Below, piece by piece: positions 8,323 through 59,946 of a stretch of 64,000 bases of DNA (within the stretch, counting starts at the first letter, position 1; each line of letters opens with the position of its first letter). This DNA comes from Porphyridium purpureum (taxonomy: Eukaryota). The stretch covers positions 62,001 through 126,000 of the forward strand of contig VRMN01000012.1 of the NCBI GenBank assembly GCA_008690995.1. The letters run 5' to 3'. A program made the translations under genes and the position numbers. The notes beneath the pieces were generated by a model, which was not told the DNA's origin, searched no databases, and saw only the letters and a program-made list of their open reading frames with translations.

Positions 8323-8326
8323 GTAC

Positions 8327-17642: not shown

Positions 17643-19157
17643 TCAGGCTCTCTGCCGTCCGCAGTGCTCTTCAGTAGTCTATACCTTAGACCGCAACACT
17701 GAATGCAAGCTTTTTGGCTGGTCTTTTGGACCACCTTGCTTCGCCCGTGCTCTTCAGCAGCCGATTTTCGGACTGCAACACTTGACAATCGCTTGGCTGC
17801 CGACCTTGTCGTCTGCAGCAAGCCTCGTACCACCTAGAAACGCAGCTTCTTTGCTGCACCCAGCAGCAAAGGATACTTCGAAGTAATGTTGCCGCTACCA
17901 GTTTGACTGCTTTAACCGATACGCTTATCGTGAATACGTGCCTTCTGTGGCCTCGATATGCATGAGCTAAACCGTACGACCCGAGACGCACTCACTCAAC
18001 TACACACGAGACACAGAAAGACACCGAGGATTCTCACAAAGAACCACTTTTACTGTTCTCTCCCACGATGAAACAATCGTACCTTTTTTAAAAAATCCAG
18101 AACGATTTGGCTATTGCACGAAGGTTGCCACCCTTTTATACCCTGCAGTTGTTGCTGTCGCTTGTCATTGTTAGCGCCCAGTGTCACGGAACGGTGCGGC
18201 ATCGCCAGGCTTTTTACATTCGCCCATCGGCAGCAGCCTCTGCCATTTGCGTTGCAGACGAGTCCTCACTCTTTTTTCGCTTCTTCAATACAGTGCGCTG
18301 TACTTCCCTTTCGTTCAGTCGCTTATGTACCGCTGTACCTACCGCCCCTAACATATAACAAGACTTGAAATTTCTCCCTCTCTGCTTTGTAACCGAATCA
18401 ACAAAACCGGACCGCTTCACCGATAACAGGAACTGGAAACCGCCACACCCCGGAAACTGACAAACCGACGAACCGACACACCGAAACGAACGGAAGGACA
18501 ATCAGGACAATCAGAGAAAAGTGGCTAGAAAGGAAGAGAGGACAGAAAATTCAACTTATAGGGGACTACGAGAGGGAGTGGACCGGTCTTGACAAGTGAA
18601 GGGTGATGGAAGGTACGTTTAAACCCCAGCTGCCTTTTTGAAAACACTCCAGACCGATATCCGCTCGCACATCACGCTAGCGTGCCTCTCCCGCAAATCC
18701 AACCCAAGTCTTCCAACGACTGCCTCAATCTAACTAACCAATTCTCTTTTTATTCTATTTGCCCTTACCTCTTCTTCTACCTTGACCTGGAAATTCCTGG
18801 GAACCGGCTTGCCCCTCCGTCCTTTTATACCCTTCGTCCTTGCTCTTTCCAGCAACGACGGGAGAACAAATTTCTCCAACAGGACGAATTTCCACCACAG
18901 GTTTTGATTCGTTCCACAACTCGCAACCACAGCCGGCCACGTATCCGAAAAATGGCCGGGAAGGCGCGTCAAGAACGAATCCAGAAGCTTCGGCCGACCT
19001 TTGATCTTTGCACAAGGCCACACAAAATGACAATGACAAACATTTCGCAGGTCCGAGATCATTAAGCTTCTCGAACAATCTTCCAGCATAGAACTTTCTA
19101 GGGTTTTGTACTCAAAACCCTACGGCGTCTCTCGGGGCGGAACCCTAAAATTCCACG

Positions 19158-19261
19158 CAAGAGAGGCCACAAAAGACAGCACGGGTGTTGAAGCGGAAGA
19201 GAGAGAGGCAGAGACTTATACTGCGAAAGACGGCGGTCGCTTGAGAGGACCGTCCGTGACA
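19158..19261 (-). repeat. LTR-like direct repeat (partner at 12793-12901)
   Basis: Begins TGTCACGGACGG on the minus strand. Confidence 0.8.
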
Positions 19262-19732
19262 AGCGTACGCCATGCACTTTGCTGGTCTTACCAACAATCA
19301 GCTTGCCTCTTCTTTGCGCTTCATCTTATGCTAAAGGTCGGTGCGTCGATAATCTTCTCATGAGAGGTAGAGGCAGCGCCGTGGTGCGGATTGTAGTAGA
19401 AGGCCATTCTCTTTTACTAAACCGAAAGACCTTACCTCTAAGCCCTGTCTCTAAGTGGTGCCGAGTCGCCAGGCGAGAGGAGGCTGGCGCTTAAATAGAG
19501 CCGCTGGACTGCACTTCGCTTCTGCCGTGCGGGCACGGCCCTGCGGAGGGGTCGCCCGAGTGGAGGTGAGGGGTCGCGCCCCCTCCCGCGTCTTCGCCGT
19601 CGGGCGAACTAGCTGCCCCAACGGAGCGTCTCCATCCAGCCCGACCGGTTGCGGCGCCCTGGTGACAAGGACCGAACCGCTGCCGGTCTCGCCGTTGGGG
19701 CGTACAGCGATGTCATCACATCTTCACTTGTA

Positions 19733-21126
19733 CAGTAAGTGACAATCAATTAAAAACACCCGTACTTTTTAATTTTTCTTACAAGAAAGGTAAAATTTGT
19801 CCGCAATCGGTGAAGGTCGACAGTTTGGCGCGAAAAAGAGGTGACAAACGATTAAAAACAGCGAAGGTTCAGAGCATTTACCGGCGTATTGAAAGGAAAA
19901 ATCAGGTTTTAGAAGCGGCATTTCTTTCCTTGTGCCAAGGCCACTTCAATGATCCTCTTTGGCATGCTGTCATACAGGTCTCTGACGTAGCAATCGTCCA
20001 TTTTCTCCCACGCATCCTCGACTGCCTTTCGTAGCTCTTTAACATTAGAATACTGCTTGCATCCACCGTAAACCTGACGCGTCAATTGGCCCCATACATT
20101 CTCAATCGGGTTCAGGTCTGGCGAAAGCGCGGGCCAATCCAGAACCTCCACGTTATTGCATTGCAACCAGTCCATCGTGATCTTGGCCCGGTGGGAAGCA
20201 GCCCCATCCTGCATAAATTTGAAGTATCCAAGCGTTTCTTTAGCCTTCACAATGACTCGAGACTTGTCCAACATTTCCACGTATTTTGCGGCAGTCTGGC
20301 CCCCCGAATAGTAGTCTTTTGTGAACAAAAGAGCAAGCTTTCCTTCTCCGTTTATGGCTCCCCAGACCATCAAGCTCTGTCCACCATAAACACGACTCAA
20401 ACATACAGCTGGTTCATCCTCCAGACCCGCCCAGTAGAATTTCAAGCCATCAGGACCGTCCAAATTCCACTTCTTCTCGTCTGTAAATACAACATCTCGC
20501 CATTCCTCGCGTTTCCAGTGGTGATCAAGCACAAATTTTATACGTGCCTGCCGATGGCGATCCTGCAAATGCGGCGTTTTCTTGCACTTCTTCCATATGT
20601 GCTCATTTCTAATGACACGTCGGACCGTTTGCACTGAGACTGACTTGGCACGTGCTGACAAGATGCCTGCTTGCACCTGGCCTGCAGTAGAAAATGGCTT
20701 CGTTTTCAGGACATTCTCAATCTTTCGGCGTAGGTAAGGTGTCATTTTTCCGGCATTCTGATTGGGTCCCCGTTTGCCGTACTGTTCCGGGCATTTCAAA
20801 TAGTTCCTCACTACCGTTACTGAGCGAGATCCTCCCAGTCGGTCCGCGATCACCCGCAATGAGTGACCCTCAGCAACCAAAGCAGTGATTACGCCCTGCT
20901 CTCGTTCAGTGAGGCTTGACGCCTTGCCCATGATTTTCCCCCGCCGCGAGCTCAATTCCACGCACTGTAAAGCTTGGAATGTGTGTTTACCTGCAGTGTT
21001 TTTAATCGTTTGGACGCTTGCAACGGTCACCGCAAGGTCGACCTTCTATCGTTTTGCTCTAAAATTATCTTTTTTGTTAGAAAAAGTAAAAAAGTACGGG
21101 TGTTTTTAATTGATTGTCACTTGCTG
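19733..21126 (-). mobile_element. Tc1/Tc3-like DNA transposon; its last 2 nt and right TA are displaced to 26406-26409
   Basis: TA at 19731-19732 then CAGTAAGTGACAATCAATTAAAAACACCCGTAC, matched in inverted orientation at about 21093-21126; imperfect TIR of about 130 bp. Confidence 0.95.
19909..20931 (-). CDS. Tc3-like DD34E transposase (340 aa)
   Basis: N-terminal HTH, FTDEKKWNLDGPDG, QDGAASH, WPALSPDLNPIENVW; 34 residues between the second D and the E. Confidence 0.95.
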   Translation of the reverse strand: MGKASSLTEREQGVITALVAEGHSLRVIADRLGGSRSVTVVRNYLKCPEQYGKRGPNQNAGKMTPYLRRKIENVLKTKPFSTAGQVQAGILSARAKSVSVQTVRRVIRNEHIWKKCKKTPHLQDRHRQARIKFVLDHHWKREEWRDVVFTDEKKWNLDGPDGLKFYWAGLEDEPAVCLSRVYGGQSLMVWGAINGEGKLALLFTKDYYSGGQTAAKYVEMLDKSRVIVKAKETLGYFKFMQDGAASHRAKITMDWLQCNNVEVLDWPALSPDLNPIENVWGQLTRQVYGGCKQYSNVKELRKAVEDAWEKMDDCYVRDLYDSMPKRIIEVALAQGKKCRF

Positions 21127-21324
21127 TCGCTACCGAGGTATGTGGGTACAGTTGCCTGCGAGATAAGATAGCGGCCGGTCTGGCAAACCTGTGGCGACAG
21201 TGGTAGAGAGAGAGAGAGAGAGTGGACAGAGAGTAGTAAAGAGGACTTATAGTTCCCGGCCCATGGTAGCGGGTGAGAGCCCCCCAAAGCTGACTACTCG
21301 TCCACACGGAAGATAGCAACAACA
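21125..21324 (+). repeat. 5' LTR of the GalEa-like copia
   Basis: Direct repeat of 26201-26400; contains (AG)9. Confidence 0.96.
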
Positions 21325-21437
21325 TTGAATTCAATCCGTTGCGTGGATTGTCTTCGGGGAGAAGGAAGGAATATTCCTATCACAAGGAGAAAACAAAGAG
21401 AACTTTCGCCCTCTGGGCAGGCCTGTGTAGGCACAGG

Positions 21438-24400
21438 ATGTCTCAGTTAAGCGGATCGGTTCTATCCACCCGCGTGCTAGAGGCACGCGAGTTGACGGAA
21501 GAGTACAAAGCACAAATGGCAGACAAGGACACGGCGGAGATCTTGGAGTCCCTTCAGGTTATGTTCACCGGCGAGATCATCAAGAATCTGGGGCCTGTCG
21601 GCCAGTTCTCATTCTACAGGTGGCTTGTAGACAAAGGAGTCACGATTCCTGAGAAAGACCATGGTGGGAACATAATCCCTGTTCTTTTCCGCCTTTTACC
21701 ATTGTTGTCAGTCAGCCAGCGGGATCCGGGATCCACTTCTAATGTGCAGGCTACAGTCGAGGTGGGGAGTATGGAAATCCAATCTGACAACGACAGGTCC
21801 GACGTGCCATACACTGATGGTACATCTCAAGGAGCGCGCGTTGCTATGAGCAAAAGCGAGGAAACCTTCATGAGACGCTACAGTGCATTCACCAAGGCAT
21901 ATCAGAGTGTAGATTCAAAGTTCTACGGTACCGACGAGGAAAATTTCGCCGCATGGCGAATGCAACTCGTAAATCATTTAGCTCTACACAATCTGGATGA
22001 TCAGTACACTGCACAGGTGATCCAAGCCTGTCTCGCAGGCGATGCTCTTACGTTTTATCTTGGGACGTATGTTGACGAAGATTTGACAAAGTTCACCATA
22101 GCAGATGTTCTGGTGGGCTTAAGGGACCACTTTTACACCATCGAGAAGCTTGAACGCCTGCAGGAGCAGTGGGAAAAGGCAAACTTCGCGGAATTCCAGG
22201 CTAACAATTCCAATATCTCTGAAGTGGAAAATTTTAAGTCTTTGACCCAAAGACTCAAAAGAATCCAGCCAAATTTGAAAAAACCATACAGATCCCATGA
22301 AATGCTACGTGACAAGTATAAGCAAATCATGTTCAGACATCCTGTATACGAGCGCCTCGTCATGACCCCGCTGCCAACATCGGCTGACGCACTATGCAGC
22401 AAAATTGAAGCCTTGCTTCTGCATATGCAACCCAGTACAGTCTCGCCAAAGCCGCAGCTTGCTTTCACTGCGCAGCAGACGTCAAGGGCACCTATGGCTC
22501 AGCCAAATCACTCGGTGACTCTGTATCAAGAGCGATACAGGCGTTCGCATGCAAAACCGCAGGCTAATCGGGCAAGATCTACTCCTCGACCGATTAGCAT
22601 CGCATCCGCCAGCAATCCTCGTACGGCAAACGGCACACAGCTTCTTTGCGACATTTGCCAATCCGCAAAACATTTTCGGCGGTTCTGCCCCGACAAGGAA
22701 GCCAAAAGGAAATTTTATACTGCGAATTCAAACTACATGGTGGCAGATTTTCTAGGCTCCGACTCTTCTTCGGGTGCAGACGCAAGCGACAGCACCGACG
22801 ATGTCACCCACACAGACCTCGTTTGGCTTTCGCCAAGTCTTGTTCTTTTTCAACATGACACCGCTTTTGTTATTGTCGACAGCGGCGCTAGCGGTGGAAA
22901 CTTAGTGGGTGAACGATTCTGTCAAGCCCGACAAACCGTCCAAGTTACAGCCCCGCCAAGACGCGTAAAAATGGGCACAAGTGTCTTCGACACTCGCGGT
23001 CAAGCCAAAATTGTCATGCTAGACATAGGTGGAGCAAAGCTCGAATTCTTTGCTGATGTCATACAACTTGACATCCCACCACTTCTTGGATGGCGCGAGC
23101 AAAAGGCGCGACACATGACACTGGACGCGGGCGCCGGCATATTAACGGCCCTTGCCGACAGCGAACAGCTCAACTTTAGGGTCCACACAATTGCTGGACT
23201 CCCTTGCATTTTACTTCCAAATCCAGAAAATCCAGATTCGGTCAAAGAGCAACGTGATGATATAGTCCTGTTCACTGCTACAGAATTGCGCAGATTACAC
23301 GTGCACTTTGGGCACGCACATCTCGACAAAATCCGCGATCTGTTGCAGCGCAGTGGTCAACGTCTGACTTCTGCCGAAATTCGCTGGTATGCAGATATCG
23401 TACAGAAGTGCAAAGCTTGCCAATTCTACGCGGATGTACCACGGCGCCCCATTGTGGCCATGCCAGTCAACCCGTTCTTCAACCGCGATATCGCCATAGA
23501 CACTGTATACTTCGACGGCCTCGCTGTGCTACACATTGTGTGCAAAGGAACCAAATATGCCAGGAATCCTGTTTTACGACGCACGGATGCGGTAACCGTC
23601 ATCAGTACGTTCTATACTTCTTGGATCACCATCTTTGGCATTCCGGCCACATTATCCATGGACCGCGGTACTGAGTTTCTGAATGCAACTTTACTCGAAT
23701 TCTGTGATGGACTCGGCATTGTGATGCGTCCAGCGGCGACTGCAGCAGCCTGGTCGATAGGTGTCGTGGAACGACACCATAAGCCCCTGAAAACTGTGTA
23801 CTTTCGCTTGAAAACAACATTCCCAGACCGCGATTGCGAATTATTGCTCGCACAAGCAGAATTTGCACTGAATGCCACGCTTGGCAACCGCTACACATGT
23901 CCATTTTTACTGGTCTTCGGTCAATTACCCGTGTTCCCGCTTGGCACAGTCCAGGACCAACACAAAATGACCACAGACCGCCATATGGCTATGGAAGTCG
24001 CGCGTAGAACGACCGAAGGTATCATTGCTACCAGGCGCATTCGCGAGGCAACGCACACAAGCGTTTCAGAAAGCGCACCAGCTTTGCTGAGCCGTGGAGA
24101 CCGGGTGCTGTTCTGGCGCCCAAGTGAGAGAGCTTGGGTCGGACCCGCGACCGTGGTCCATGTACACGGAGATGCGAAAACGGTAAAAGTTGAATACAAA
24201 ACGCGGAACTACCACCCAGCTCTCCACCAAGTCAAATTGTTCGTCGCGGATCAAGTGCTATGGGCCGACGAGACTGAGACTTTCTCCAAAATTCTGCAAG
24301 TATCAGAACATTCACTCAGAAGAAAATGTGACTTTACGATATCGCGCGCCAAAGAAATCGATGGATGGCATGCAAAGGGCGTAGTGGAAGCCATTCGCAC

Positions 24401-25769
24401 GACAGAGCGCGCGAATCTAGACACGCGGTGGGTGGACTCCATCAAACTTTCAGATGGAAAAGAGTTCCCGAAATCACGTCTCGCCTTGCGAGAGTTTGCA
24501 AAATTGCAACCACATGGTTCCATGCTTCGAGACTCACCTACGACATCACGATGGACTGTGCGCGTTCTGCTCTCAGTAGCACTTAATCAATCATGGTCCA
24601 TATCATCCTCGGACGTCGAACAAGCCTTTCTTCAGAGCCAGCCTCTGAAACGTCGCGTTTTGGTGCAACCTCCAAAAGAAGCTGGTCTACCATCTGGTGT
24701 CCTCTGGCTTCTGAAGAAAGCCGCCTACGGTCTGGTGGATGCTGCGTACATCTGGTACGAGTCTCTCCGCGACGTGCTCGTCAACAAAATGCAAATGAAA
24801 GAGTCCATGGTAGACCCGTGCTTATTTGTTGCGAACGAGGGTGCATGCACAACCCAAGTCGACGATATCTTAACCGTGGGCACGCCCCAATTTCTCGAAG
24901 CTCAAAAAGAAATTCGCAAGTATCTACAGCTCCATCGAGAAAAACGTGAGAAGTTCATTTTCAACGGAGCCCAGCTCACAGTCAAGGAGAACTGTGTCAG
25001 TATTGATTTACAAGCGTATATCGAGAAATCTCGCATTGTGGCAGTGAGAATCACCACTTATAGTGACTTCCAGCGCTTCCGCGGCCAACTGCTATGGCTT
25101 GCTGCAAATTCGAGACCAGACTTAGCGTATCCTGCTGCACAACTCTCGCAAATCTCACAAGACATGTTCGACCATAAGGTGTACAAAGAGTTAGTAGCCC
25201 AAGCGCGGGGTGCAGTCTGCACAATGCCATATTTGCACTTCAACCGCCTTCACGGCACCGTGGCAATTCAAGTATTTGCGGACGCCAGTTTCGCAAACAA
25301 TGTTGACTTGAGCAGCCAGCTCGGCTTTATCATCTGTCTCGCGGACAGCCAAGGCCATTATAATATTGTGCACTGGCGTTCGGGAAAATCCCGCCGTGTT
25401 GTCAAATCGACTCTCGCAGCCGAGACGCTCGCAGTCATCGACGCATTCGACCACGCCGGTGCAGTGAAGCATATGCTCCAGGAACTAGGAATTCCCAGCC
25501 CGGAAGTTATTCTTTACACGGACAATCGATCCGTATTTGACGCCATGTCCAAGCGCACGGCCTGCACCGAGAAAGCCGTACAGATATCTGTCGCCATCCT
25601 GCGCCAAGCATTGCAAGAAGCAGCGCTCACCAAAATCGGACTTCTGTTGTCTGCTGACAATCCAGCCGATGCATTGACCAAAGCGCGCGGCAACTCTGAG
25701 CTAGACTCGCTCCTGCGTGCTGAAGTCTATCACCCTAAGGTTGTGGAATGGTTTGAAGTGAAAAAGTAG
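21438..25769 (+). CDS. Gag-Pol polyprotein of the GalEa-like copia
   Basis: CDICQSAKHFRRFC, IVDSGAS, LHVHFGH...CKAC, DRGTEF, KSRLALR, LKKAAYGLVDA, QVDD, FADASFAN, NPADALTK. Confidence 0.95.
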   Translation: MSQLSGSVLSTRVLEARELTEEYKAQMADKDTAEILESLQVMFTGEIIKNLGPVGQFSFYRWLVDKGVTIPEKDHGGNIIPVLFRLLPLLSVSQRDPGSTSNVQATVEVGSMEIQSDNDRSDVPYTDGTSQGARVAMSKSEETFMRRYSAFTKAYQSVDSKFYGTDEENFAAWRMQLVNHLALHNLDDQYTAQVIQACLAGDALTFYLGTYVDEDLTKFTIADVLVGLRDHFYTIEKLERLQEQWEKANFAEFQANNSNISEVENFKSLTQRLKRIQPNLKKPYRSHEMLRDKYKQIMFRHPVYERLVMTPLPTSADALCSKIEALLLHMQPSTVSPKPQLAFTAQQTSRAPMAQPNHSVTLYQERYRRSHAKPQANRARSTPRPISIASASNPRTANGTQLLCDICQSAKHFRRFCPDKEAKRKFYTANSNYMVADFLGSDSSSGADASDSTDDVTHTDLVWLSPSLVLFQHDTAFVIVDSGASGGNLVGERFCQARQTVQVTAPPRRVKMGTSVFDTRGQAKIVMLDIGGAKLEFFADVIQLDIPPLLGWREQKARHMTLDAGAGILTALADSEQLNFRVHTIAGLPCILLPNPENPDSVKEQRDDIVLFTATELRRLHVHFGHAHLDKIRDLLQRSGQRLTSAEIRWYADIVQKCKACQFYADVPRRPIVAMPVNPFFNRDIAIDTVYFDGLAVLHIVCKGTKYARNPVLRRTDAVTVISTFYTSWITIFGIPATLSMDRGTEFLNATLLEFCDGLGIVMRPAATAAAWSIGVVERHHKPLKTVYFRLKTTFPDRDCELLLAQAEFALNATLGNRYTCPFLLVFGQLPVFPLGTVQDQHKMTTDRHMAMEVARRTTEGIIATRRIREATHTSVSESAPALLSRGDRVLFWRPSERAWVGPATVVHVHGDAKTVKVEYKTRNYHPALHQVKLFVADQVLWADETETFSKILQVSEHSLRRKCDFTISRAKEIDGWHAKGVVEAIRTTERANLDTRWVDSIKLSDGKEFPKSRLALREFAKLQPHGSMLRDSPTTSRWTVRVLLSVALNQSWSISSSDVEQAFLQSQPLKRRVLVQPPKEAGLPSGVLWLLKKAAYGLVDAAYIWYESLRDVLVNKMQMKESMVDPCLFVANEGACTTQVDDILTVGTPQFLEAQKEIRKYLQLHREKREKFIFNGAQLTVKENCVSIDLQAYIEKSRIVAVRITTYSDFQRFRGQLLWLAANSRPDLAYPAAQLSQISQDMFDHKVYKELVAQARGAVCTMPYLHFNRLHGTVAIQVFADASFANNVDLSSQLGFIICLADSQGHYNIVHWRSGKSRRVVKSTLAAETLAVIDAFDHAGAVKHMLQELGIPSPEVILYTDNRSVFDAMSKRTACTEKAVQISVAILRQALQEAALTKIGLLLSADNPADALTKARGNSELDSLLRAEVYHPKVVEWFEVKK

Positions 25770-26200
25770 TGTACACTGCACTTTATGGGTGTTCACTTAC
25801 ACACCAATATAGATTCTGACGGAAATTGAACTGTTCCGTGGGTCTCAAGGAAGGTGAACAGGAAGCAACAGTTTTCGTCGATTACGCTGTCTGTCGTCGT
25901 GTCCCACGCGGTGGTTACGTGTGACAAGCCAAATGCGCTTCGCCCACAAGCTTGTGCGGGCATGAAGGGCAACGCGTGAAGGTTTGATGTTTTATTCTTT
26001 TTCTTTGTATGTTTGAGTCTGTTGAATTCAGCAATTTTCGAGTGCGTGTTTTTGTCCTGAGAAGGTTTTTCCGCCGTGCTGATTTGAATTTGTTTCTTCT
26101 ATTCTAAGTACTCCATTTCGTTGTCCAAGACTCACGTTGATGTAACAATTCCGTGTCGCCTCGGTTGATGCGCTCATGCCACAAAAGGAAAAGGGTTGTG

Positions 26201-26400
26201 TGTCACTACCGAGGTATGTGGGTACAGTTGCCTGCGAGATAAGATAGCAGCCGGTCTGGCAAACCTGTGGCGACAGTGGTAGAGAGAGAGAGAGAGAGTG
26301 GACAGAGAGTAGTAAAGAGGACTTATAGTTCCCGGCCCATGGTAGCGGGTGAGAGCCCCCCAAAGCTGACTACTCGTCCACACGGAAGATAGCAACAACA
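26201..26400 (+). repeat. 3' LTR of the GalEa-like copia
   Basis: Direct repeat of 21125-21324. Confidence 0.96.
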
Positions 26401-28830
26401 CTTGCTGTACACAGGTTTACACTACAAAGTTAAATCAGGCATTAAATTAATATTTGGCGATTAAAGAAATGCGTGTTGCCGAAACGACATACGAGGCGGT
26501 GCGTACTCGGTGAGGTCTGGTACAATAGCGGTGATACACTGCTGCGACAGCTGCTTGAACAGCTTCCGCATTGGCCGCTTCTCCAGCAGCTACTGCACCA
26601 CTGTCGTCTCCGGAGGCATCGTATGCTTCGGTCCCAGTCTTCCGGTAGAATCCCTGGCAGCGCCGGCGCCGAGTCGATCGCGTAGTTGTTCCTCCATTCG
26701 TCGTCCGCGGCGACGTCCGCGGCGTCGGAAGGTATGACAGAAGCCGTGGGATACTGAGCGAGCTGCACATGCTCTGTGTCAGAAAAATTGGTGCTCGAGT
26801 AGGACGCATGCTCGTCAATCCGCAGGTCGATTTCAAGTGGGTTTCGTCGGACCCCGAAAAAATCGAACTCAGCGTCAGCTTGCGCCCCCGCAATACTCGT
26901 CCCTGCGCGTCGCTTCAAGTCTCTGCGCGAGCTGTTGCTACTGAGCACGCTCTGCATGTTGCGCACTTTCCACGCGTTTCTCTTTGTGAGCACGACCTTT
27001 CTATATTTGTCGCTGTCTCACTCCCGCGCGTCGTGTATCATTCCTTCGCCGACTCGCTTGCTGATACAGATGCCGTGTATGCCATCGTTCCCGCGGCTCT
27101 GCTCTCCAGTATTCCTTATGGCGTCCAGATGATTCGCAGAGGCAGAGTCCCATTCCTCTTCCGATTGAAGAATCTACATCGTCACGCGCAGCCACAAAGT
27201 CCGTACGCTGCCCTTGCTCACGCTGTGGCAGGTCATCCTCTTCATGCGCACTTGGACCGCTGCATGGCCGAATATTGCACGGCGTCGCCGTACGACCTAT
27301 TCGGCGAGTCGCTCAATCCGCGACCCCGGTCTCGCGCAGTGAAGGGCCGACCGAGTCACCGCCAGCGCTGCACCTTGCCGATCGCATGACGCAGGACGTG
27401 CTAGCCTGTCTGTGGGCGCTTGGGTCGCGCCGAATCGACGTTACTTAAGAGCAAGCTCACGCATTTGTCCCACGTGTGCAACTGGTCCAGCCGCCGGGCT
27501 TTTATGCATTGCCTGTGGGACACCAGGACTGTTGAAATACACGTGTTCTTGTTTTGGTTGTTTACACCTCCAAGCAAGGGGTCTTCCCGAACGGGAGGTG
27601 TGCTACTGCTTGGTTCGGCTCCAGGCGCGAGGTCTGCTCGAACGGGAGCCTGTTTCTCCAAGGGTCGCACAGAGATGTTGCACTACCGAGTAGCTCTACT
27701 CCAGGCAATGCTGCGAATTACCACACCTCTTCTTGTTTTTACAAACTTCTTCCTTGTTGTTTTTTATTTTCTTTTCACAGTTGCGCTGTTCCACAAGTGG
27801 TCCTTGTTTTATACTCGACGGCACTGCCGCACACATATGTGTAGATTGCACTATCTTCCTGGAGGACACGCATGCACGCGAATCAGCCCTGTTCTGATAT
27901 GTGATCTTGCCCTGCTGATACGTTGGGTCATGATCAACTTAATCTGAGAAGTGGGGCGCGACTGCTTGTATGGATTTGGCTCACGGTACAGTCTGGCTAT
28001 GACGTGCGTTCTGACAAAGTGTTGTGAGTATTTTCGACAAGGACGGAACAGTGGGGAGATCCAGCTGGAAAGGAGCGAGAATAACTCGGTTGCAAGTGCC
28101 ACCGTAGATCGGAACGAGAAGGTACGCGCGGAAGGCTCTTTTCGCACGCGCTCGATTTTCAGAAGTACCATTCTCAGTCTGTGTCGCGCACGGTCTTGCT
28201 GTCTCGCGCAACTTGATCGCATTTCGAGCTCGACCGAGTTGTGCGGTAGCCGTGCTATGTTCTGCGTGTGGATATCGTTCGAAGGACAGCCAAACTGTGG
28301 TCACCGAGTCTTTGAGACGAGCAGCGTACTCTAGCAAGGGTGTTTGTTCGAGCTGATTCTACGCCATACCAGGCGGATCCCGCACTTCGCTGCGCTTGTC
28401 ATCGTTCCTTTAGTCACACGCTTCGGTTGATTAACCGTGTGTGGATGCTTGATGTGTCACTGAAGTGACCTGCGCTGACTGTATCTGTGTGTGAGTCTGC
28501 GCACGCACGCTCTGATTCAGTCAACATCATCTGTTCCACTATAGCTGGCACCTGGAATAGTGCAGAGAGGAGCACAGAGTCGGCTCTTTCTGTGTTGTGT
28601 CACTGCTATCAGAAGCGGCCAGCCGTGCGGTCCGGGTGACAAGCCGGGCATAGCGTCCTTGTCAGAAGGCTGAGAGATTTCATGGGTCGACGCGAGGACT
28701 GTCTGGTGAGTACGGAGACTGTTGCGGGTATTCGGCAAGTGCAGTGGAGACGTAACATCACTCGGCCTGTCGCAAAAAGTGGACCTCGACGATTTTGACT
28801 TGCCGGGCATCTGTGGCTTGAGCGACGAAT

Positions 28831-30576: not shown

Positions 30577-32757
30577 ATGGGGTTCGGATTGGGGAAGAAG
30601 GCATCGGTGGATCAGGCGGTGAAAATGAGACCAAGGCATAAGGACGTGCACACGCAAACGAGCCTATCGTACTGGCTAAACCCGAAAAATCGTGCTCTTG
30701 CACGTACCAGTAGTGAGGTGGTCAAGCCAATCCACATGCAGAGAAGTTGCCACACTCAGACTTGCTCGTCGGTCACGAGTACGGTGACTGGCAGGGAGTT
30801 ACCACCTGAGCATGGTACTGAAAAAGTGGCAGACTTTCGAAGACATCGGACGGTGGAAGAAATTTCTTATCCTGAAGACATGGACGATGTGGAAAATATG
30901 GATCCCAATAGAATTGTGCAGATTACTCCTTCGAATCGAAGGCTTTCCGAATCGAGAGACCAGTCTAAGGCTTGGAAGATATATCCAACTGTCGTACCGA
31001 CTATATTGAATACGCCACACTTTGACATGTTCGAGACGTCGACTGGCTTGAATTATAAAGGCCAGAGTACGCCTGGACCCGGAGGACCCGAGCCGGAGCC
31101 CGAGCCGCCGAGCCCGAGCCGAGCCGGAGCCGAGCAGCGTGCAGGTAGTGTTCGCAGAGTTGAGCAGCCTGAGTCGTCAGGAAAACAATCGTCCACTTGT
31201 ACAGTGGTCCTGCCGGAAATGAAGAAGCGCGTGTCGGATGCAGAAATCAATGATCTGGCTGAAAATCATGTCATTGCAAAACCAGCACTCACGTCTGAAT
31301 GTCAGCCAGAGGCCTCAAAGATAACGGCGCCGCCTTCGAAACTGAACCGCGATGGCCAAGCAACGCAACATGTTACACGCAAAATGAGAACATTGGAGAG
31401 GCAGCAACAGCACTTAGGACCTGCAAGACCCGCTTCGGTGCAAGTCTTGGTTCAAGAAGGCGCAGCGTACCACTGTGCACAGAACTGGAATCCCAGCAAT
31501 TCAACTTCGCATGTGCTGCCTATTCGAAGCGTGTCAAAAATCCGCGCAGGTGCAAAGCTAGTCATAGACACATTCCAGACACTCACGACCTTTCGTGTGC
31601 TGAAACGAATTGCCTTGCCGTCAAGCAGTACCACATCTGCAAGTCCAAGTCCGGCTTTTTACACTGCCGTCGTTCATGCTCGCTGCGCAGGTCATCGACC
31701 GAATGGTGCCGTGACTAGCAGTAGTACCGTGCTTCTCAAGGTTGTTGCGCCTGGCAGTATCTGGGATTTTTACATCATCAATATCATCCGGGAACGTATC
31801 GGAGGCTCGGGTCGTGCGGATCTGTTGCCATTTATGCCATGTGCTCCGCGCCTTTTCCACCACCAAGACGAGTGTATTCTGGCGCTGAAACTGGCGAGTG
31901 GCACGCTGCGGGGCGACGATACGTTTGTTCCACTCGGCACACTCCTCAAAGGGCAGCGCCAGACTGTTCGGCGTACGTGCGCGAACCCGGTTGGCCCGGC
32001 CGATGCTTCACAAATGGACGAGCATATTGTAGCGTATTATTTGCACGCCCTTGTACGAGTCGTCCACGGCATGCATCTTGCGTGGGTAGCGCACGGGGGA
32101 ATCTGTGCAGATGTGATTATGGTGAAACGCGGTCGAGATGCCGGAGCGCCAGTAGCTCTCCAGCATCCGAGGAATCCGCATCATACAAACGGTGGTGGTG
32201 GGTCCAAAAATGTGCTCTTGGACGACCCCGTGCTGCTCTTTGTCGATTTTCAGCACGCTGTGGACCTCCGGCTTGCCGAAGCTGCCAGTCGCAGAGCATG
32301 TGGCTCCGCCGCGCCATCTTGCGACAAGCTCAGCGCAGTCCTGTTTGAAGCCGACTTGAATGCCATTGGTCGGTTGGTCCAGAACCTGCTGAGCGCGTGT
32401 ACTAGTCGCACATCTCGATACGAATCTATATCGCGCGACCTATGGCTTCACGACTCTCTCTGGAGTCGTATCATGGACGAGCTGTGTCCCCGCGGAGCGC
32501 TTCAAAACCAGACTGCCTTTGATGGTCCCAACGACACTGTTCAGCCGCAGTTTAACATCTTCGGCCGTCACAATGCGACGCAGGCCCCACTGGAAACCGA
32601 CGCAGGCTTCGCCTCACTATCGCAGCCGCGGAAGCTGCGCTCCGGACACGACACGCTGCGCGCACTCGCGCGCGTGGAGCAGCAGCTGCGCACGTTCATC
32701 GACGCGCGCGCCGTACGTATCCATCACGCGCTGCAGCGCTTCTTCTTCAGCCAGTAA
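30577..32757 (+). CDS. Bub1/BubR1-like kinase-domain protein, probably a pseudokinase
   Basis: LLKVVAPGSIWDFYI, MDEHIVAYY, HGGICADVIMV, LFVDFQHAVDLRL follow the Bub1 pattern (LKV..P...WEFYI, HGDIKPDN, LIDLG.SID). Confidence 0.6.
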   Translation: MGFGLGKKASVDQAVKMRPRHKDVHTQTSLSYWLNPKNRALARTSSEVVKPIHMQRSCHTQTCSSVTSTVTGRELPPEHGTEKVADFRRHRTVEEISYPEDMDDVENMDPNRIVQITPSNRRLSESRDQSKAWKIYPTVVPTILNTPHFDMFETSTGLNYKGQSTPGPGGPEPEPEPPSPSRAGAEQRAGSVRRVEQPESSGKQSSTCTVVLPEMKKRVSDAEINDLAENHVIAKPALTSECQPEASKITAPPSKLNRDGQATQHVTRKMRTLERQQQHLGPARPASVQVLVQEGAAYHCAQNWNPSNSTSHVLPIRSVSKIRAGAKLVIDTFQTLTTFRVLKRIALPSSSTTSASPSPAFYTAVVHARCAGHRPNGAVTSSSTVLLKVVAPGSIWDFYIINIIRERIGGSGRADLLPFMPCAPRLFHHQDECILALKLASGTLRGDDTFVPLGTLLKGQRQTVRRTCANPVGPADASQMDEHIVAYYLHALVRVVHGMHLAWVAHGGICADVIMVKRGRDAGAPVALQHPRNPHHTNGGGGSKNVLLDDPVLLFVDFQHAVDLRLAEAASRRACGSAAPSCDKLSAVLFEADLNAIGRLVQNLLSACTSRTSRYESISRDLWLHDSLWSRIMDELCPRGALQNQTAFDGPNDTVQPQFNIFGRHNATQAPLETDAGFASLSQPRKLRSGHDTLRALARVEQQLRTFIDARAVRIHHALQRFFFSQ

Positions 32758-32760
32758 ATC

Positions 32761-33035
32761 CGTGATTCGGAGGTCAAGCTGTACCCCAGTATCGAGCGCC
32801 GGTGGTTACGAGGTTGTCGATCGCAGCCGGCGGCGGCGCCGTGCGGGTACTTAAACAGCGCCGATTCGTTCCGTCGTAGACGCTCCCAAAAATGCCTCGA
32901 GTCAGAGGAGTTTGTGGTAACGACTAAAGCAGGTAGCCTTTGTTATTTTGTTTTGGTCTAATCTTCTCGGCAGCGAACTTCGGCTCGTTGTTCCCACACC
33001 ATTAGTACTAAGCCTACCACTAGTAAGGCTTCTTG
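32761..33035 (+). repeat. 5' LTR (275 bp) of the hybrid element
   Basis: No difference seen from 38135-38409. Confidence 0.96.
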
Positions 33036-33050
33036 GGTTATGAGCCCAGC
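33036..33050 (+). promoter_or_regulatory. Primer binding site complementary to the anticodon arm of initiator tRNA-Met
   Basis: GGTTATGAGCCCAGC directly after the LTR, similar to the Drosophila copia PBS GGTTATGGGCCCAG. Confidence 0.85.
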
Positions 33051-33315: not shown

Positions 33316-33360
33316 CAAAAAGACTCGTGCACAAAGGCACAGAGCAACGGGATCTCCTCA

Positions 33361-36300
33361 ATGGAATCAGGTCAAAGGACCCCCACCAGGCTCGAGCAGG
33401 AGCGCACCGCAGCGCTCGCTCGCCAGCAGCAGCAGGCCATGCAGGCCGAGCTGGCTGCACAGGCCGCTGCGCAACAACAACAACAGCAGCAGCAGGCAAC
33501 GACCAGCGCCGCGAGTGACATAGAAAACATACGCCAGGCGTTGGCCCAAGAGTTCTCGCGAATGCGCGAGGAGCTCCTTGGGCAGGTGCAAGAGGAGCGT
33601 AATGCTCTTGCTGCCGAGATGCATCGATGGCGCAACGGCGCATACCCGCGAGCCGAAGCAGCGTCGCAAGTCAAAGCCGCGCCAATGGCGCCATTTCTTG
33701 GGGACAGGGATGCACTCGCGGTCGGCGCGTGGTGTGAGACCGCTAGCGAGCGGATCTACATCCAGCTCCAAGAGGAGTATCGCGCCGGCTCTCATCCGTG
33801 GGATGATGATGCTGAACAGAAGTGTGTGCGTATCGCCGCCTCCTTCTTTCATGGGGCGTCTAGGCTTTGGTGGTCAGTGCTTGACCCAAAGCCTGTCCGG
33901 TTTGATGACTTCTTGCAGGCGTTCAGGCGGGAATTCGAACCCATCGCCTCGGACCAGGTCGCGCGTGACAGGCTTGCCGCTTGTGCGCAGCGCAACCGCA
34001 GCGTCCACGACTACGCAAACGATTTCGGAAACTGCCTGCTCAGGCTCCCGTCGGTCGGTGATTCCGAGCGGCTCGATCGTTTTGTGCGCGGTCTGCAGAG
34101 CAAGATTCAAATTCAGGTGCTGCTAAGGCAACCTGCATCGTACCATGAGGCGCTTCGCGCCGCATTGGCAGTCGACGCCGTATTTCGGCAAAGCGTGCAC
34201 GCGTCAGCATTTGCTGAAAAAGATGCAGCGCCAATGGATCTAGGATCGGCCGAGGCTCCGCGCCGACAGACACGAGCACCGAACAGAAAAAGCAAGAAAC
34301 GCCCGAAGAACCAGCAGCGCACCGTGCCGAGGAGCGCGCCGCAAGCACCGTCAAGGACCGCCCGCGTCGGAGCGGATACGTGTCATAACTGTGGGCGCCG
34401 CGGCCACTGGGCCGCCGAATGCACCCACGAGTTGGGTGTCGCGGAGTTTGAGATTGGTGCGGCCGCACTCGCGAAGTCGGACTTGATCCAATTGCCCGTT
34501 TTTATCAATGGCCACGCATCGAACGCGGTAGTCGATACCGGTGCAACCGCGACATTTGTATCAGAGGCGGTGTGCAACAAACTTAGAGTCCCTTTCACGA
34601 AAAGCGGGTCGAACGGGCCACGAATTCGTCTGGCCGATGGACGCACCAAGCCAATCACGGGCAAAGCGTCGTTCTTGCTTACGGTGCCAGGCATCGTCGA
34701 AGAACGCACAGAGGCATGGGTGCACAGCGGGCACCATGCAATGATCCTTGGTCTCGACTGGCTCAACGAGCACCAGGCCAAGCTGCAGGTCGGCGGCAAG
34801 ATCTTGCTGGATGTCTCTACTCCAAGACAATACACAAGGAACGCCGCTAACGCAAGGACACCGGATACTTTGGAATGTGCCGCGACCAATGAGCAAAATG
34901 AAAGCAGCGGGGGCACGGTCGGCATTGAGCACGAGGTGCTCCACATGCCTGCACGCGCTGATTGCGATGCCTGTCAGGCATCCAAGCTTCAGACCATGCG
35001 CGCACCACGCCGCACGCAAACGCCCCAGTTCTCTGCGTTCAACGATACCGTTTCCGTCGACCTAGTCGATCCAACTGAGTACGGTATCTGCGGCGCGAGA
35101 TGGCTCCTGACGCACAGGGACGCGACTACCGGGTGGCTTGTTGTGGCGCCCCTGGCGAACAAGACCGCGGAAAGCGCGTTGACCGCTTTCCTTGAAATAC
35201 AACGCGGTCGCGGCTGGCCGCGACTCGTCAGGAGTGACGAAGGCCGCGAGTTCCAGGGCGCGTTCGAAGTCGCACTGAAGGCCAACCTCGTGGCCCACGA
35301 ATCGGGACTAGCTCACCGACCAAATACGCACGCAACGCACGAACGCGTACACCGGGATCTCAATGCAGGAGTACGCACGCTGCTGCTGACCGCCGGGCTC
35401 GAGCCGGAATGGTTCGCGTTCGCCGCGAAGTACTGGGCCAACGCACGTAATGCCGCCTGGAAAAGCAGGGATGGTATCGCGCCGTATCAGGCTCGCTACG
35501 GACGCAAGTGGGAGCGCGATATCCCGCCTTTTGGCCGTGGAGTTTATATCATGACGGCGGAACGTGCCAAGTTTCACCCCAGGGGTATGCTGTCCCTCGT
35601 CATGGGCATCCGATTCCCATCACCGACCACCAACCGCACCCCGCTCAACGTTCTCGCAATTCCGCTCGACAATCTCCGCCCCTCAGCCGCCAAGTGGGTG
35701 GGAGAGTGGAGCTTGTCAACACGTGTGTTCCCTAGCAAGGAACAACGCTCTAATGAGGGAGCAGTGGATCGGATAATGCCTGAGTGGCATGCAGTGCTCG
35801 ATCCCGATGGGGATCGGACGCCGGAGCGTGCTCGATCAGAGGATCATGACGAGGAAAAGGCGCAAGCCCTGCAAAAGCAAGACATTGACGTCCCGACCAC
35901 GACGGCGTCAAGGGAGGAGTACGAGCGACGCTCATGGAGCACCGAGATGGATGACGCACTGCGTGCCGGGTACGCAGCTCATGGGCCGAAATGGAAAACC
36001 ATTTGCGATACAGGTGGCGAAGCGCTGAGCGGAGTCGGGGGCCTGGCGTTGCGCTCGCACGCGAGCGCAATCGGCCTGCTCGGAGAAAAGGCTACGGGGT
36101 TAGGTAAGCACCGACGCGGCCGGACAGCAGGAGACATCCGCGCCCGTCAAGCCGTCCTCAATGTGGCGCAGCAAATGCAATCGGAGAGCGCCGCACCGGG
36201 CTGCGATAGCTTGCACCTTGGTGTGGCTGAAGTAGTATCGTTTGCCACGCATTCGCGGACGCAGGCGGGACGTCTGGCCTTCACCAAAGAAATGAATACG

Positions 36301-37911
36301 CTCATCAGTAGCGGTGCGCTACCATTCCAGAAAGCACTAGGCCGATGCGAAGCCGCACGCGTGCCGAACGCGCGGTTTGTTAAGTTGAAGCCGATCCTCG
36401 CCATCAAGAACAGCGAGATGCCGCCGGAACACCGAATGCTTAAATGTCGCATCGTGGCACAGGGTTGCCACATCACGGATGTGGATGGCAAACGTGCACC
36501 GCCTGAAACACCACAGTTTGACCGGCCGCCTGGTCTTTCCAGCATACGCGCGGCCGTGTCCGTCGCACTGCACGTGCACGGCGCCGCAGCTGATGCATTA
36601 TTTTTCGATATCGATGCCGCGTATGTCCACGCGCCATTGAGAGGGAACCCCACGTTCGCGTATTTCAAGTCTCTGGTGCCGTTTTTGGAAGGAATCGTTA
36701 CACGTCATGTTCTGCGGAAGATCGCAAGTTTGAAGGACCCCGTGGTCCCGTTGCCAATGGCACTATATGGTCTGCCGCGCGCAGGTTTCGATTATTCCGC
36801 GTACGCCCGCCAGAAACTGTGCGCCGCCCAATGGAGTGAGTCTGCTGCAGACAAGAACGTTTATTGGCGTCGGCGCGCCGGAGTGCTAACGCTACTAGTG
36901 CTTTACGTCGATGACGGGGCCATTTTGGGCACCACTGCCTCGGTGAACGAGGCCATGCACGAGCTGGTGCGCATGTTCAGGATCACGAAGAGCGCGCAGC
37001 TTCTGTCGGAAAGCTCACGCGCACGGCCCATACGCTATCTCGGTGTCAACGTGTACCGCCAGGATGCAGCCTGGATCTTTGATAGTGGCGAGTACGCCAG
37101 ATACATCGCCACGGCCCACAAAGGGGGGCGCGCGAGGGCGACACCGTTGTCTACACGAATCGAGACGAGCGAGAAATTGAATGCCTGCCCACCGGAAGCG
37201 CGCGCTTGCTTGGGCAAGTTGATGTGGCTGTCACGTACGACACGACCGGATTTGGCATACGCGGTGGCCATGATTGCCAGACATACCGATCGATGGTCAG
37301 TGGATGTCCAGCGTGCCATGGATGAGGTATTGGCGTATCTCGCGAAGCACGCAAATATTACCTTACAATACGCGATGCCAAGCACAGATAACAAGGAGAT
37401 CAACATTGTCTGCTTCACTGATTCGGATCTGGATCCCGGCCGCTCCACAAGTGGTGTCGCTATCTTTCTTGCGTCCGGCGGCACTCGTCATCTTGTCGAG
37501 TGGTCAAGCCGTCGCCAAAGGCGCGTCGCTACGTCAACCGCGGAGGCGGAATTGGTGGCAATGCACAGTGCGGTGCAGAACGCGACGTTCCCAATCGCAA
37601 CATTCCTGGATGATGTATTTGCGAAGTGGCCGCGTACAACCGTGCGATGCGATAACGAGACCTCACTCGGTGCGGTGTCGAAGGGATTCAGCCCAGTGCT
37701 AGTTCATGCAAACAAGACCCAACGCATAAGCCTCGCATGGCTGCATGAGCTGCACAGCGAGCATCTCGTCGCTTTTGAACACGTACCCACCAGGGCCAAC
37801 GTGGCTGATCCGTTCACCAAGCCCGTAGGCGCCGACGTCTTTCGCGGACACGCGCGCGCGTGGGGTTTGTCATCGCCTCTCCTGTCCCCGTCCACTGGTG
37901 ATTCGCGTTGA
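33361..37911 (+). CDS. Gag-PR-INT-(Myb-like)-RT-RH polyprotein
   Basis: PMDLG, CHNCGRRGHWAAEC, VVDTGAT, ILGLDWL, HEVLH..CDAC, RSDEGREF, KCRIVAQG, LYGLPRAG, LYVDD, TRPDLAYAV, STAEAEL, NVADPFTKP. Confidence 0.95.
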   Translation: MESGQRTPTRLEQERTAALARQQQQAMQAELAAQAAAQQQQQQQQATTSAASDIENIRQALAQEFSRMREELLGQVQEERNALAAEMHRWRNGAYPRAEAASQVKAAPMAPFLGDRDALAVGAWCETASERIYIQLQEEYRAGSHPWDDDAEQKCVRIAASFFHGASRLWWSVLDPKPVRFDDFLQAFRREFEPIASDQVARDRLAACAQRNRSVHDYANDFGNCLLRLPSVGDSERLDRFVRGLQSKIQIQVLLRQPASYHEALRAALAVDAVFRQSVHASAFAEKDAAPMDLGSAEAPRRQTRAPNRKSKKRPKNQQRTVPRSAPQAPSRTARVGADTCHNCGRRGHWAAECTHELGVAEFEIGAAALAKSDLIQLPVFINGHASNAVVDTGATATFVSEAVCNKLRVPFTKSGSNGPRIRLADGRTKPITGKASFLLTVPGIVEERTEAWVHSGHHAMILGLDWLNEHQAKLQVGGKILLDVSTPRQYTRNAANARTPDTLECAATNEQNESSGGTVGIEHEVLHMPARADCDACQASKLQTMRAPRRTQTPQFSAFNDTVSVDLVDPTEYGICGARWLLTHRDATTGWLVVAPLANKTAESALTAFLEIQRGRGWPRLVRSDEGREFQGAFEVALKANLVAHESGLAHRPNTHATHERVHRDLNAGVRTLLLTAGLEPEWFAFAAKYWANARNAAWKSRDGIAPYQARYGRKWERDIPPFGRGVYIMTAERAKFHPRGMLSLVMGIRFPSPTTNRTPLNVLAIPLDNLRPSAAKWVGEWSLSTRVFPSKEQRSNEGAVDRIMPEWHAVLDPDGDRTPERARSEDHDEEKAQALQKQDIDVPTTTASREEYERRSWSTEMDDALRAGYAAHGPKWKTICDTGGEALSGVGGLALRSHASAIGLLGEKATGLGKHRRGRTAGDIRARQAVLNVAQQMQSESAAPGCDSLHLGVAEVVSFATHSRTQAGRLAFTKEMNTLISSGALPFQKALGRCEAARVPNARFVKLKPILAIKNSEMPPEHRMLKCRIVAQGCHITDVDGKRAPPETPQFDRPPGLSSIRAAVSVALHVHGAAADALFFDIDAAYVHAPLRGNPTFAYFKSLVPFLEGIVTRHVLRKIASLKDPVVPLPMALYGLPRAGFDYSAYARQKLCAAQWSESAADKNVYWRRRAGVLTLLVLYVDDGAILGTTASVNEAMHELVRMFRITKSAQLLSESSRARPIRYLGVNVYRQDAAWIFDSGEYARYIATAHKGGRARATPLSTRIETSEKLNACPPEARACLGKLMWLSRTTRPDLAYAVAMIARHTDRWSVDVQRAMDEVLAYLAKHANITLQYAMPSTDNKEINIVCFTDSDLDPGRSTSGVAIFLASGGTRHLVEWSSRRQRRVATSTAEAELVAMHSAVQNATFPIATFLDDVFAKWPRTTVRCDNETSLGAVSKGFSPVLVHANKTQRISLAWLHELHSEHLVAFEHVPTRANVADPFTKPVGADVFRGHARAWGLSSPLLSPSTGDSR

Positions 37912-38134: not shown

Positions 38135-38409
38135 CGTGATTCGGAGGTCAAGCTGTACCCCAGTATCGAGCGCCGGTGGTTACGAGGTTGTCGATCGCAG
38201 CCGGCGGCGGCGCCGTGCGGGTACTTAAACAGCGCCGATTCGTTCCGTCGTAGACGCTCCCAAAAATGCCTCGAGTCAGAGGAGTTTGTGGTAACGACTA
38301 AAGCAGGTAGCCTTTGTTATTTTGTTTTGGTCTAATCTTCTCGGCAGCGAACTTCGGCTCGTTGTTCCCACACCATTAGTACTAAGCCTACCACTAGTAA
38401 GGCTTCTTG
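38135..38409 (+). repeat. 3' LTR (275 bp) of the hybrid element
   Basis: Preceded by GAGGGGG plus 2 nt and followed by the TSD AAATC. Confidence 0.96.
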
Positions 38410-38563
38410 AAATCCACTGTACACTATCACAAAGCGTACTGTACACTACTGGTGACCGGGAGATCGCGCGCGGAAGTGATGGACGGAAAGAAGGAGAGTA
38501 TTGGCAGCAGCAAGAGGTGTGGTCGAGTTCCGTCCTGAAGCAGCGGCGACGACGAGCACTGCC

Positions 38564-39466
38564 ATGGCGTTCGTGAATGGTTTTGGAGGTGCGGACCAGA
38601 AAGTGCCGGTGCCGTGGTCGTGTGATGTGTGTCGCCGCACGTCGCGCGGCAGAGATGCGGTCGTGGTGCGAATGGGCATGATGGACGACTTCAAGAACTT
38701 TTGGAAGAACTTCAATGAGAGCTTGGACTACGCAGTGGTCGGGCGTCGCGAGGCGATGTGGAGTCCAGACCGTCGGCCCGAGGACCAGCGCGTGTATGAT
38801 ATTTCAAAGACAAAGCTGTCGTGGGGAAACAAGGCCGAGCGGATGTCCACGGCAGCCGAACAGGCGCGACTGAAACAGCAGGTTTCGCTCGATACGAACA
38901 TTGCGCGCGGCAGCGCAAGCAGCGAGGCGCAATCCTTCTCGCAGCTGTATGAGACCGATACAGAGGATGAACACATGGGCCCGGCCTTCACTGCGCGCGT
39001 GGAGCAAATGGCGGCCTGGTCAGATGTGCCTGTGGATGACCCGGCAGAGCGCTTTATCACCGGCATGGAGCTCGCCGAGATGGTATTCGACAAATACGGC
39101 AAGTACCACGACGTGGGCTTGGTGCAGAACAAGATTCGGCTGCCGTTCAACGACGAGAAGAACCTTCTGCTTGCGCTGAACATTTATCCAGCGTGCCTGG
39201 GCGTGGGCGAAGAAGGATTTGGCTTCCGACTAACCGAGGAGCAGTACCTCGAAAAGCTGGAGTTCATTTCGAACATTCTGAATACGCTGGACCAGGCGTG
39301 GTGGGTGAAGAAGTTCCTGCGCGAGCCAAAACGCAGCCGCCGCGGACTGCCTTCCGAACCGCGCGAGGCGTTTGCGGTCTCGCTCGGTCTCAACGAGAGT
39401 CCAACCTGGCCGTACGTTCCCAAGAGCCTCTTGGAAGAACTGTTCGGCTCATTAGCGGACGATTAA
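38564..39466 (+). CDS. Plastid-targeted DUF3067-like protein
   Basis: MAFV... transit-peptide-like start; TGMELAEMVFDKYGKYHDV...FRLTEEQYLEKL...PREAFAVSLGL resembles the cyanobacterial/plastid DUF3067 family. Confidence 0.7.
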   Translation: MAFVNGFGGADQKVPVPWSCDVCRRTSRGRDAVVVRMGMMDDFKNFWKNFNESLDYAVVGRREAMWSPDRRPEDQRVYDISKTKLSWGNKAERMSTAAEQARLKQQVSLDTNIARGSASSEAQSFSQLYETDTEDEHMGPAFTARVEQMAAWSDVPVDDPAERFITGMELAEMVFDKYGKYHDVGLVQNKIRLPFNDEKNLLLALNIYPACLGVGEEGFGFRLTEEQYLEKLEFISNILNTLDQAWWVKKFLREPKRSRRGLPSEPREAFAVSLGLNESPTWPYVPKSLLEELFGSLADD

Positions 39467-52491: not shown

Positions 52492-52739
52492 GCAATCAAT
52501 TTTGAAAGTATACCACTCCACAGCACAACTGTTGGACGTGGTTCGAGGAATAAGATGAGAAAGTAACCATTGCGACTAAAGACATACCCTGATAGGAATT
52601 TTTGGATAAATCACCTTGAAGCCGAGCCACATTGGTGTCCGAGCGCGCAGCCCGTTTCCAGCACGGCGGATACGTTGGGCCCTTTCTCCAGTTCGGCGCG
52701 CGCACGGTTGCTCTGCTGTCATCCGCCCCCAAGCCACTC

Positions 52740-54892: not shown

Positions 54893-54951
<59 letters not shown>

Positions 54952-59915: not shown

Positions 59916-59946
<31 letters not shown>

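Follow-up and report, generated by a model that had tools for sequence, protein, structure and literature searches.

The question raised by this locus is how an LTR retrotransposon might choose its place of insertion. In Porphyridium purpureum, one such element encodes a segment resembling a Myb/SANT repeat, located between the integrase (INT) core and the reverse transcriptase (RT). The element lies within a stretch of 64,000 nucleotides, called here the window. The original prediction, made from the nucleotide sequence, considered this segment as a captured DNA- or chromatin-binding module, found at the position where other integrases carry targeting domains, and proposed that it could direct insertion next to genes. 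The identity of the repeat, its distribution among relatives and the sites occupied by other copies of the element are considered below, together with the explanations that may account for them.

The host element

The Myb segment is carried by an intact, recently inserted Ty1/copia-type LTR retrotransposon, whose gag and protease (PR) are of the gypsy type (Table 1). The PR-INT-RT-RH order with an RT of the RVT_2 type, the LTRs and the 5-bp target-site duplication are those of the Ty1/copia group; on the contrary, the termini are CG..TG instead of TG..CA, both in the window element and in a second insertion (A, see below), and neither gag nor protease is copia-type. A Myb-bearing relative, P0028, has a copia-type protease (Pol_BBD). 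Hybrid elements are reportedly found also in Porphyra yezoensis, where Peddigari et al. are said to have described in 2008 copia/gypsy hybrids, i.e., red-algal copia elements with gypsy-like parts. The left end of the LTR reads CG and then TG, as if two bases that are normally trimmed had been kept, and the right end is without CA. The primer-binding site is presumably of the half-tRNA-Met type. Half-tRNA priming is used by some copia lineages, according to the account in PMC6317226.

Table 1. Coordinates of the Myb-bearing element and of its target site in the window
Feature	Position	Strand	Evidence and remarks
Left target-site duplication, AAATC (5 bp)	32756..32760	+	Overlaps stop codon of upstream ORF 30577-32757
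5' LTR, 275 bp	32761..33035	+	Begins CG-TG, ends TTG (not TG..CA); 100% identity to 3' LTR; start at C recurs in other insertions
Primer-binding site (likely)	33036..33049	+	Sequence; adjoins 5' LTR
gag-pol, single 1516-aa ORF	33361..37911	+	ORF calls, Pfam; order gag-PR-INT-Myb-RT-RH
Gypsy-type gag (Retrotrans_gag, Ty3_capsid), CCHC knuckle, gypsy-type aspartic protease	33832..34767	+	Pfam E 9e-11, 2e-5, 7e-11
Integrase HHCC and catalytic core	34927..35451	+	Alignment; rve matches in relatives; 57-75% identity to P0003/P0004/P0009
SH3-like integrase C-terminal domain (likely)	35524..35715	+	PF25597 match at equivalent place in relatives; no Pfam match of its own in the window protein
Poorly conserved linker	35716..35925	+	10-30% identity; Cys/His zinc finger often here in relatives
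Single Myb repeat	35926..36081	+	Pfam, family profile vs PDB, AlphaFold2, structure searches, ESM Atlas
Myb helix 1	about 35941-35982	+	AlphaFold2 model
Myb helix 2	about 35992-36012	+	AlphaFold2 model
Myb helix 3	about 36040-36069	+	AlphaFold2 model
Basic tail GLGKHRRGR, 3' of Myb, conserved	36082..36123	+	57-71% identity in P0003/P0004/P0009
Copia-type reverse transcriptase	36217..37074	+	RVT_2 E=0.008 here; down to 1e-7 in close relatives
RNase H (RH)	37405..37854	+	Alignment
3' LTR	38135..38409	+	Identity to 5' LTR; purine-rich tract just before
Right target-site duplication, AAATC (5 bp)	38410..38414	+	Matches left copy
GTACACT target-side word	38419..38425	+	4 bp past right duplication; same offset in insertions A, B

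The polyprotein and the Myb peptide share one open frame spanning 33316-37911, and no Pfam match to a chromodomain was obtained with the polyprotein. A protein named "Copia protein, Porphyridium purpureum" differs from it at 3 of 1516 positions; near-identical proteins bear the name of Porphyridium purpureum. An empty allele of the site is present in three sequencing runs (X2, X9 and X12), which makes the insertion recent and polymorphic; the empty-site joint skips 5654 nucleotides, i.e., 5649 + 5, supporting a 5-bp duplication at the window element. Insertion A carries GCGGA on both sides: the duplication is therefore 5 bp long and the termini are CG..TG, and a duplication of 6 bp was rejected on this ground. 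On its left, the insertion falls on the stop codon that closes a kinase-like ORF (30577-32757); on its right, a second ORF (38564-39466) begins 154 bp downstream of the element, and both frames are intact. In one RNA-seq run of 1.6 billion letters, 40 reads fell on the 396-bp 3' end, some of them from a diverged family, which indicates that transcription of the element is low at most.

Identity and fold of the Myb repeat

A 51-residue Myb-like peptide is indeed encoded in frame at 35926-36078 of the plus strand, between the integrase core and RT, as had been predicted. Searched alone against Pfam PF00249, the window segment gives E=0.002 and 18.7 bits over helices 1-2 only, below the gathering cut-off of 24.4 bits, and full-length P0009 reaches 24.3 bits. 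An initial profile, seeded with four close relatives, was searched among 155 proteins and added six segments, full or nearly so, at E<1e-3. In the resulting family alignment of 12 segments, 9 match PF00249, the best isolated segment with E 4.6e-7; the Pfam match that the original prediction proposed to look for is found for the family, whereas the window copy taken singly remains below threshold. With the 12-segment profile, 38 sequences of the PDB were retrieved at E<=1; all but one of them (37) are Myb-domain proteins by name (best E 4.5e-7), and the best 33 matches are Myb proteins without exception. The top match of the segment in the ESM Atlas is a Myb cluster (0.91).

AlphaFold2, run on the 12-row alignment, predicted helices at residues 9-22, 26-32 and 42-51 with a mean pLDDT of 81, in agreement with the three-helix fold expected of a captured single repeat in the linker; a longer piece, folded from its sequence alone, gave a low-confidence model (pLDDT 57) in which the three helices did not appear. 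A structure search of the model with VIA-align was led by human TRF1 (Z 8.3) and Schizosaccharomyces pombe Tbf1 (Z 7.8), with rmsd values of 2.2-2.3 A; since other Mybs follow within about 1 Z unit, as near ties, the donor Myb family is not fixed by structure. Foldseek placed Tbf1 first and Myb domains in its top rows, with E-values that are not significant (best 0.44). The three helices of the model have the helix-turn-helix arrangement of a Myb/SANT repeat, and the family also displays the Trp/hydrophobic core and the acidic helix 1 of these domains: the first Trp is present in 11 of the 12 segments and the second in all 12, while the third position is occupied by Ala or Leu, with Ala in the window copy as in Tbf1. 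Replacement of the third Trp is common in single-repeat Mybs (PMC10887745).

The resemblance to the telobox type, also part of the original prediction, holds for shape and not for specificity. The third helix, which had been noted as divergent, does occupy the true recognition-helix position, aligning with helix 3 of S. pombe Tbf1; its sequence, however, departs from the telobox one, the base-reading triad K-D-R being replaced by R-S-S and the LKDKWRN-type motif being missing. An Arg is found at the position of the telobox Lys, the first base-reading one, in 9 of the 12 aligned segments. In TRF1/2 the triad is described as critical, TERB1, which is devoid of it, binds no DNA, and the R425V change alone abolishes binding by TRF1 (PMC8867601). 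The window Myb, reading R-S-S in place of K-D-R, is therefore not considered a telomere binder, and targeting to telomeres was rejected on the basis of the lost triad, of the absence of TTAGGG from the element and of the insertion between two ORFs. As judged from alignments and from the predicted model, what the segment encodes is a genuine single Myb repeat, telobox-like in shape, which is not a member of the telobox group.

Conservation and distribution among relatives

Identity of the window Myb to P0003, P0004 and P0009 is 58, 40 and 40%, respectively, compared to 30, 11 and 10% for the linker that precedes it and to 78, 46 and 45% for RT. At the level of these comparisons, the Myb is shown to be conserved against a drifting linker, and the expectation of conservation among relatives was thus borne out. 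The repeat is detected at E<1e-3 in 16 of 162 relatives, all of them named P. purpureum, with 12 of the 16 being the seeds of the search profile. In a tree of RT-RNase H sequences built from 26 selected rows, with a companion tree of 75 rows, Myb bearers are found in three RT lineages: the clade of the window element, P0157/P0158 (in a cluster including P0028), and P0036. The sister of P0036 at 100/100 support, P0014, is without Myb, and two Logan relatives located inside the window clade, P0006 and P0010, have no detectable Myb; given these three close relatives, the repeat is dispensable. Its distribution would need at least four gains or losses, and both a single capture followed by losses and swaps between lineages would fit the tree.

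The sequence of helix 3 differs strongly between lineages. Among close kin, the window copy is the least basic in this helix, with a net charge of +1 over the last 20 residues; Myb segments of lineage A are net basic, those of lineage B net acidic (-5, -6). In 30 additional copia proteins, taken from elsewhere, the Myb is absent. No host donor gene was found, as a Myb-profile search of longer proteins, limited to word-sharing candidates, returned 9 family members and nothing else. A scan of metagenome and viral contigs with the family protein alignment gave no relatives; 23 metagenome loci obtained with an 18-base LTR pattern were dismissed as fortuitous, their matches not exceeding 29 bases and not extending to the protein.

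A Cys/His zinc finger, missing from the window element, occupies the same INT-RT linker in 42 of 161 proteins. Its pattern is CxxC-x-CxxC-x-H-x-C-x-CxC/G (for example in P0005 from residue 953, in P0010 from 326 and in P0161 from 691); it had no Pfam match in the proteins scanned and, from its sequence, may represent an older, undescribed accessory domain of the integrase. In P0005 the finger lies beside the Myb, while in P0012 the Myb appears to truncate it. In P0123, an unrelated copia protein, a stretch of the linker resembles what we take to be a CW-type zinc finger, possibly another captured chromatin reader. The gene models of P0014 and P0166 comprise head-to-tail blocks of INT C-terminus-RT-RH, in two and three units, respectively, which are either tandem arrays or assembly artefacts.

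Insertion sites and the GTACA(C/G)T word

Flanks of other copies were collected by comparing seven sequencing runs with the element, and the figures given here cover the flanks among the matches listed. The right flank of the window element is AAATC-CACT-GTACACT; around 38441 additional copies of the word occur, in either orientation, some 120-145 bp ahead of the next ATG (38564). Insertion A reads GCGGA-TAAG-GTACAGT (X13 contigs, with matching left duplication, and 9 raw reads in X21) and insertion B reads CTTTC or CTTAC-GAAA-GTACACT (X13, X2). The latter is a sister subfamily, roughly 88% identical, whose contigs span the Myb region gap-free and whose duplications are not exactly alike on the two sides. 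Hence, in 3 of 3 readable right flanks among the matches listed, GTACA(C/G)T is found 4 bp past unrelated duplications, on the side of the 3' LTR; the mirrored word is absent from the three readable left flanks, four left flanks in X2 being merged and unreadable. The alignment of a further right flank, C (one X12 contig, plus 3 reads in X21), extends across the word and has no more than 4 mismatches over 15 positions; among about 128,000 places in the window, 18 others match as well as this. Flank C was left out of the count, and insertion C could be a rearranged allele. The word is present in the empty-site allele, and the possibility that it forms part of the element was accordingly rejected.

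The word was defined after viewing the flanks and n is three; in a simulation open to any word and any offset, 300,000 random triples of non-coding flanks were drawn, of which 15 had 5 aligned bases in common (5e-5), whereas under a harsh null, in which each flank already contains the word, 911 of 300,000 did (0.003). The element thus appears to be site-targeted, with a bias in target choice that consists of one shared word at one offset in a small sample. In the window, GTACA(C/G)T has a density per kb and strand of 0.65 in non-coding DNA vs 0.10 in coding DNA (6.5-fold), and the non-coding density of the shorter GTACA(C/G), expressed likewise, is 1.27; the longer word is a candidate core promoter word of P. 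purpureum. Clusters on both strands occur, for example, at 11168-11175, 38419-38447, 52935-52970, 56152-56169 and 63387-63752. The fixed offset of 4 bp from a word that is commoner in non-coding than in coding DNA goes beyond the insertion-site bias that had been guessed; proximity to genes, the form in which the guess was made, says little by itself in a gene-dense window, whereas the offset is informative.

Three other elements of the window, devoid of Myb, are associated with similar sequences. A gypsy element (1083-8326; LTRs 1087-2132 and 7266-8322) has GTAC itself as its 4-bp target duplication; its C-terminus looks chromodomain-like by eye and its LTRs contain several copies of GTACAGT. 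A Tc1/mariner-like element (19732-26415, transposase ORF 19909-20931 on the minus strand) lies at a TA within a GTAC context. The right inverted repeat of this element is interrupted by a copia without Myb (21125-26400, duplication CTTGC), which has GTACAC one base past its duplication; this GTACAC, however, is the terminus of the interrupted Tc1 repeat. The window also comprises a second gypsy element (about 12700-19262, minus strand), with stop codons in pol, and, at 49612-62505, a tandem ORF family with Ser-Pro and Ser-Asp-Lys repeats, possibly coding for secreted wall or matrix proteins.

How the target may be chosen

The reading that we prefer is that the Myb, lying in the likely integrase tail, helps to aim integration by reading GTACA(C/G) 4 bp past the duplication; its probability is estimated at slightly under one half (about 0.48). 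The Myb is located upstream of the hydrophobic strand that in all relatives precedes RT, and is for this reason presumed to belong to the integrase; this strand, which opens RT, is the presumed INT/RT cleavage site, and cleavage by the protease would leave the repeat attached to the integrase. Helix 3, with the basic residue kept at its first base-reading position, would contact the word together with the basic tail, which is possibly an extra DNA contact or a nuclear signal. Held in place by this contact, the integration complex would make its staggered 5-bp cut at a distance of 4 bp from the word; in so short a gap, a separate host protein would have little room. Given the excess of the word in non-coding, promoter-like DNA, copies would be steered away from coding sequence in a gene-dense genome. 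In a more far-reaching version, the self-encoded Myb would recognise a dispersed promoter word and, with no host tether, determine both position (4 bp) and orientation, lineages with different helix 3 aiming at different words; we consider this version somewhat less likely than not. Counting against an aiming role of the Myb are the restriction to three flanks, the change of both the telobox Asp and Arg to Ser, the weakly basic helix 3 of the window copy and its variability among lineages, as well as the Myb-less elements found at GTAC and the Myb-less close relatives.

These last observations fit a site preference residing in the integrase core or in the SH3-like domain, with the Myb kept for binding to the element's own LTR, for nuclear import together with the basic tail, or for contact with chromatin. 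Myb-less elements of the window sit at GTAC, Myb-less sisters exist within the clade, and the LTR has a minus-strand GTACAG near its start (32784, 38158). The target footprint of an integrase is itself expected to reach as far as the word. However, the intrinsic preferences of LTR elements described in PMC5408687 are palindromes centred on the duplication, while here the duplications are unrelated and the mirrored word occurs in 0 of 3 left flanks, which makes this explanation unlikely. Alternatively, the Myb may bind protein, in the manner of SANT domains or TERB1, and act as a tether, the integrase being recruited by a host factor bound to the GTACA(C/G)T promoter word. Tethering is a known route for the yeast Ty1, Ty3 and Ty5 integrases (PMC5408687); two of the three telobox base-reading residues are lost, the Mybs of lineage B are acidic, and the word recurs in intergenic clusters and in the LTRs of other elements, as a host-factor site would. 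Nevertheless, a bound host factor would probably be crowded by the 4-bp gap between cut and word, Arg is maintained at the first base-reading position in most of the aligned segments and lineage A segments are basic, and we regard a tether as quite unlikely.

The shared word may also be fortuitous, the insertions being few and the intergenic DNA rich in the word, with the Myb as a passenger or working without sequence specificity. Such a reading would be favored by the three flanks available, by the post hoc choice of the word and by its non-coding density, but it is made very improbable by the outcome of both simulations and by the far better conservation of the Myb with respect to its linker.

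Significance and comparison with known systems

A literature search, outside which lay subscription papers, Repbase and supplements, found no report of a Myb in an LTR element, of a one-sided fixed-offset target word for copia, or of a GTAC promoter word in Porphyridium. Whether or not the word is read by the Myb, neither the domain capture nor the fixed-offset word has a counterpart in the literature searched. Targeted LTR elements described so far rely on host tethers, on histone or methyl readers, or on a palindrome at the cut; if the preferred reading is true, a self-encoded Myb and a one-sided word at fixed distance would bring an R2-type strategy into an integrase-based element. Should lineages with different helix 3 aim at different words, as in the more far-reaching version, the integrase tail would be a naturally swappable targeting cassette among Porphyridium lineages. 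The system would be a direct test case for gene avoidance by retrotransposons in compact genomes and a natural model for programmable integrases. Transgene expression has reportedly been achieved in Porphyridium purpureum.

CopiaMBD, an arthropod Ty1/copia family, is similar in having a captured host DNA-binding domain in Pol, under constraint and proposed as an integration guide (PMC6673714); as described there, its MBD reads methyl-CpG density and binding was demonstrated by DAP-seq, whereas the window element has a Myb, known from sequence and model, and a fixed word at a 4-bp offset. The diatom CoDi-A elements, which are Ty1/copia and share the copia order, and the Ty3/gypsy chromoviruses also carry an extra module at the integrase C-terminus, but theirs is a chromodomain that reads histone marks and gives a regional bias (PMC2774666), a domain to which the window element has no match.

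Sequence-specific LTR integration and termini other than TG/CA are features also of the Drosophila errantiviruses gypsy, ZAM and Idefix, to which PMC5408687 treats such integration in Drosophila as confined; their specificity is for a palindrome at the target itself, in the present case the sequence of the duplication is free, and the word lies outside it, on one side. An element-encoded Myb tied to site-specific insertion is found, at the N-terminus, in the non-LTR elements R2 and R4/Dong, for which Myb-guided site choice has been proposed; R2 also has zinc fingers, which may be compared with the finger of P0005. Unlike these elements, which are target-primed, use a REL endonuclease and insert in rDNA or microsatellites (PMC7998251), the window element is an integrase-based LTR retrotransposon associated with a dispersed word.
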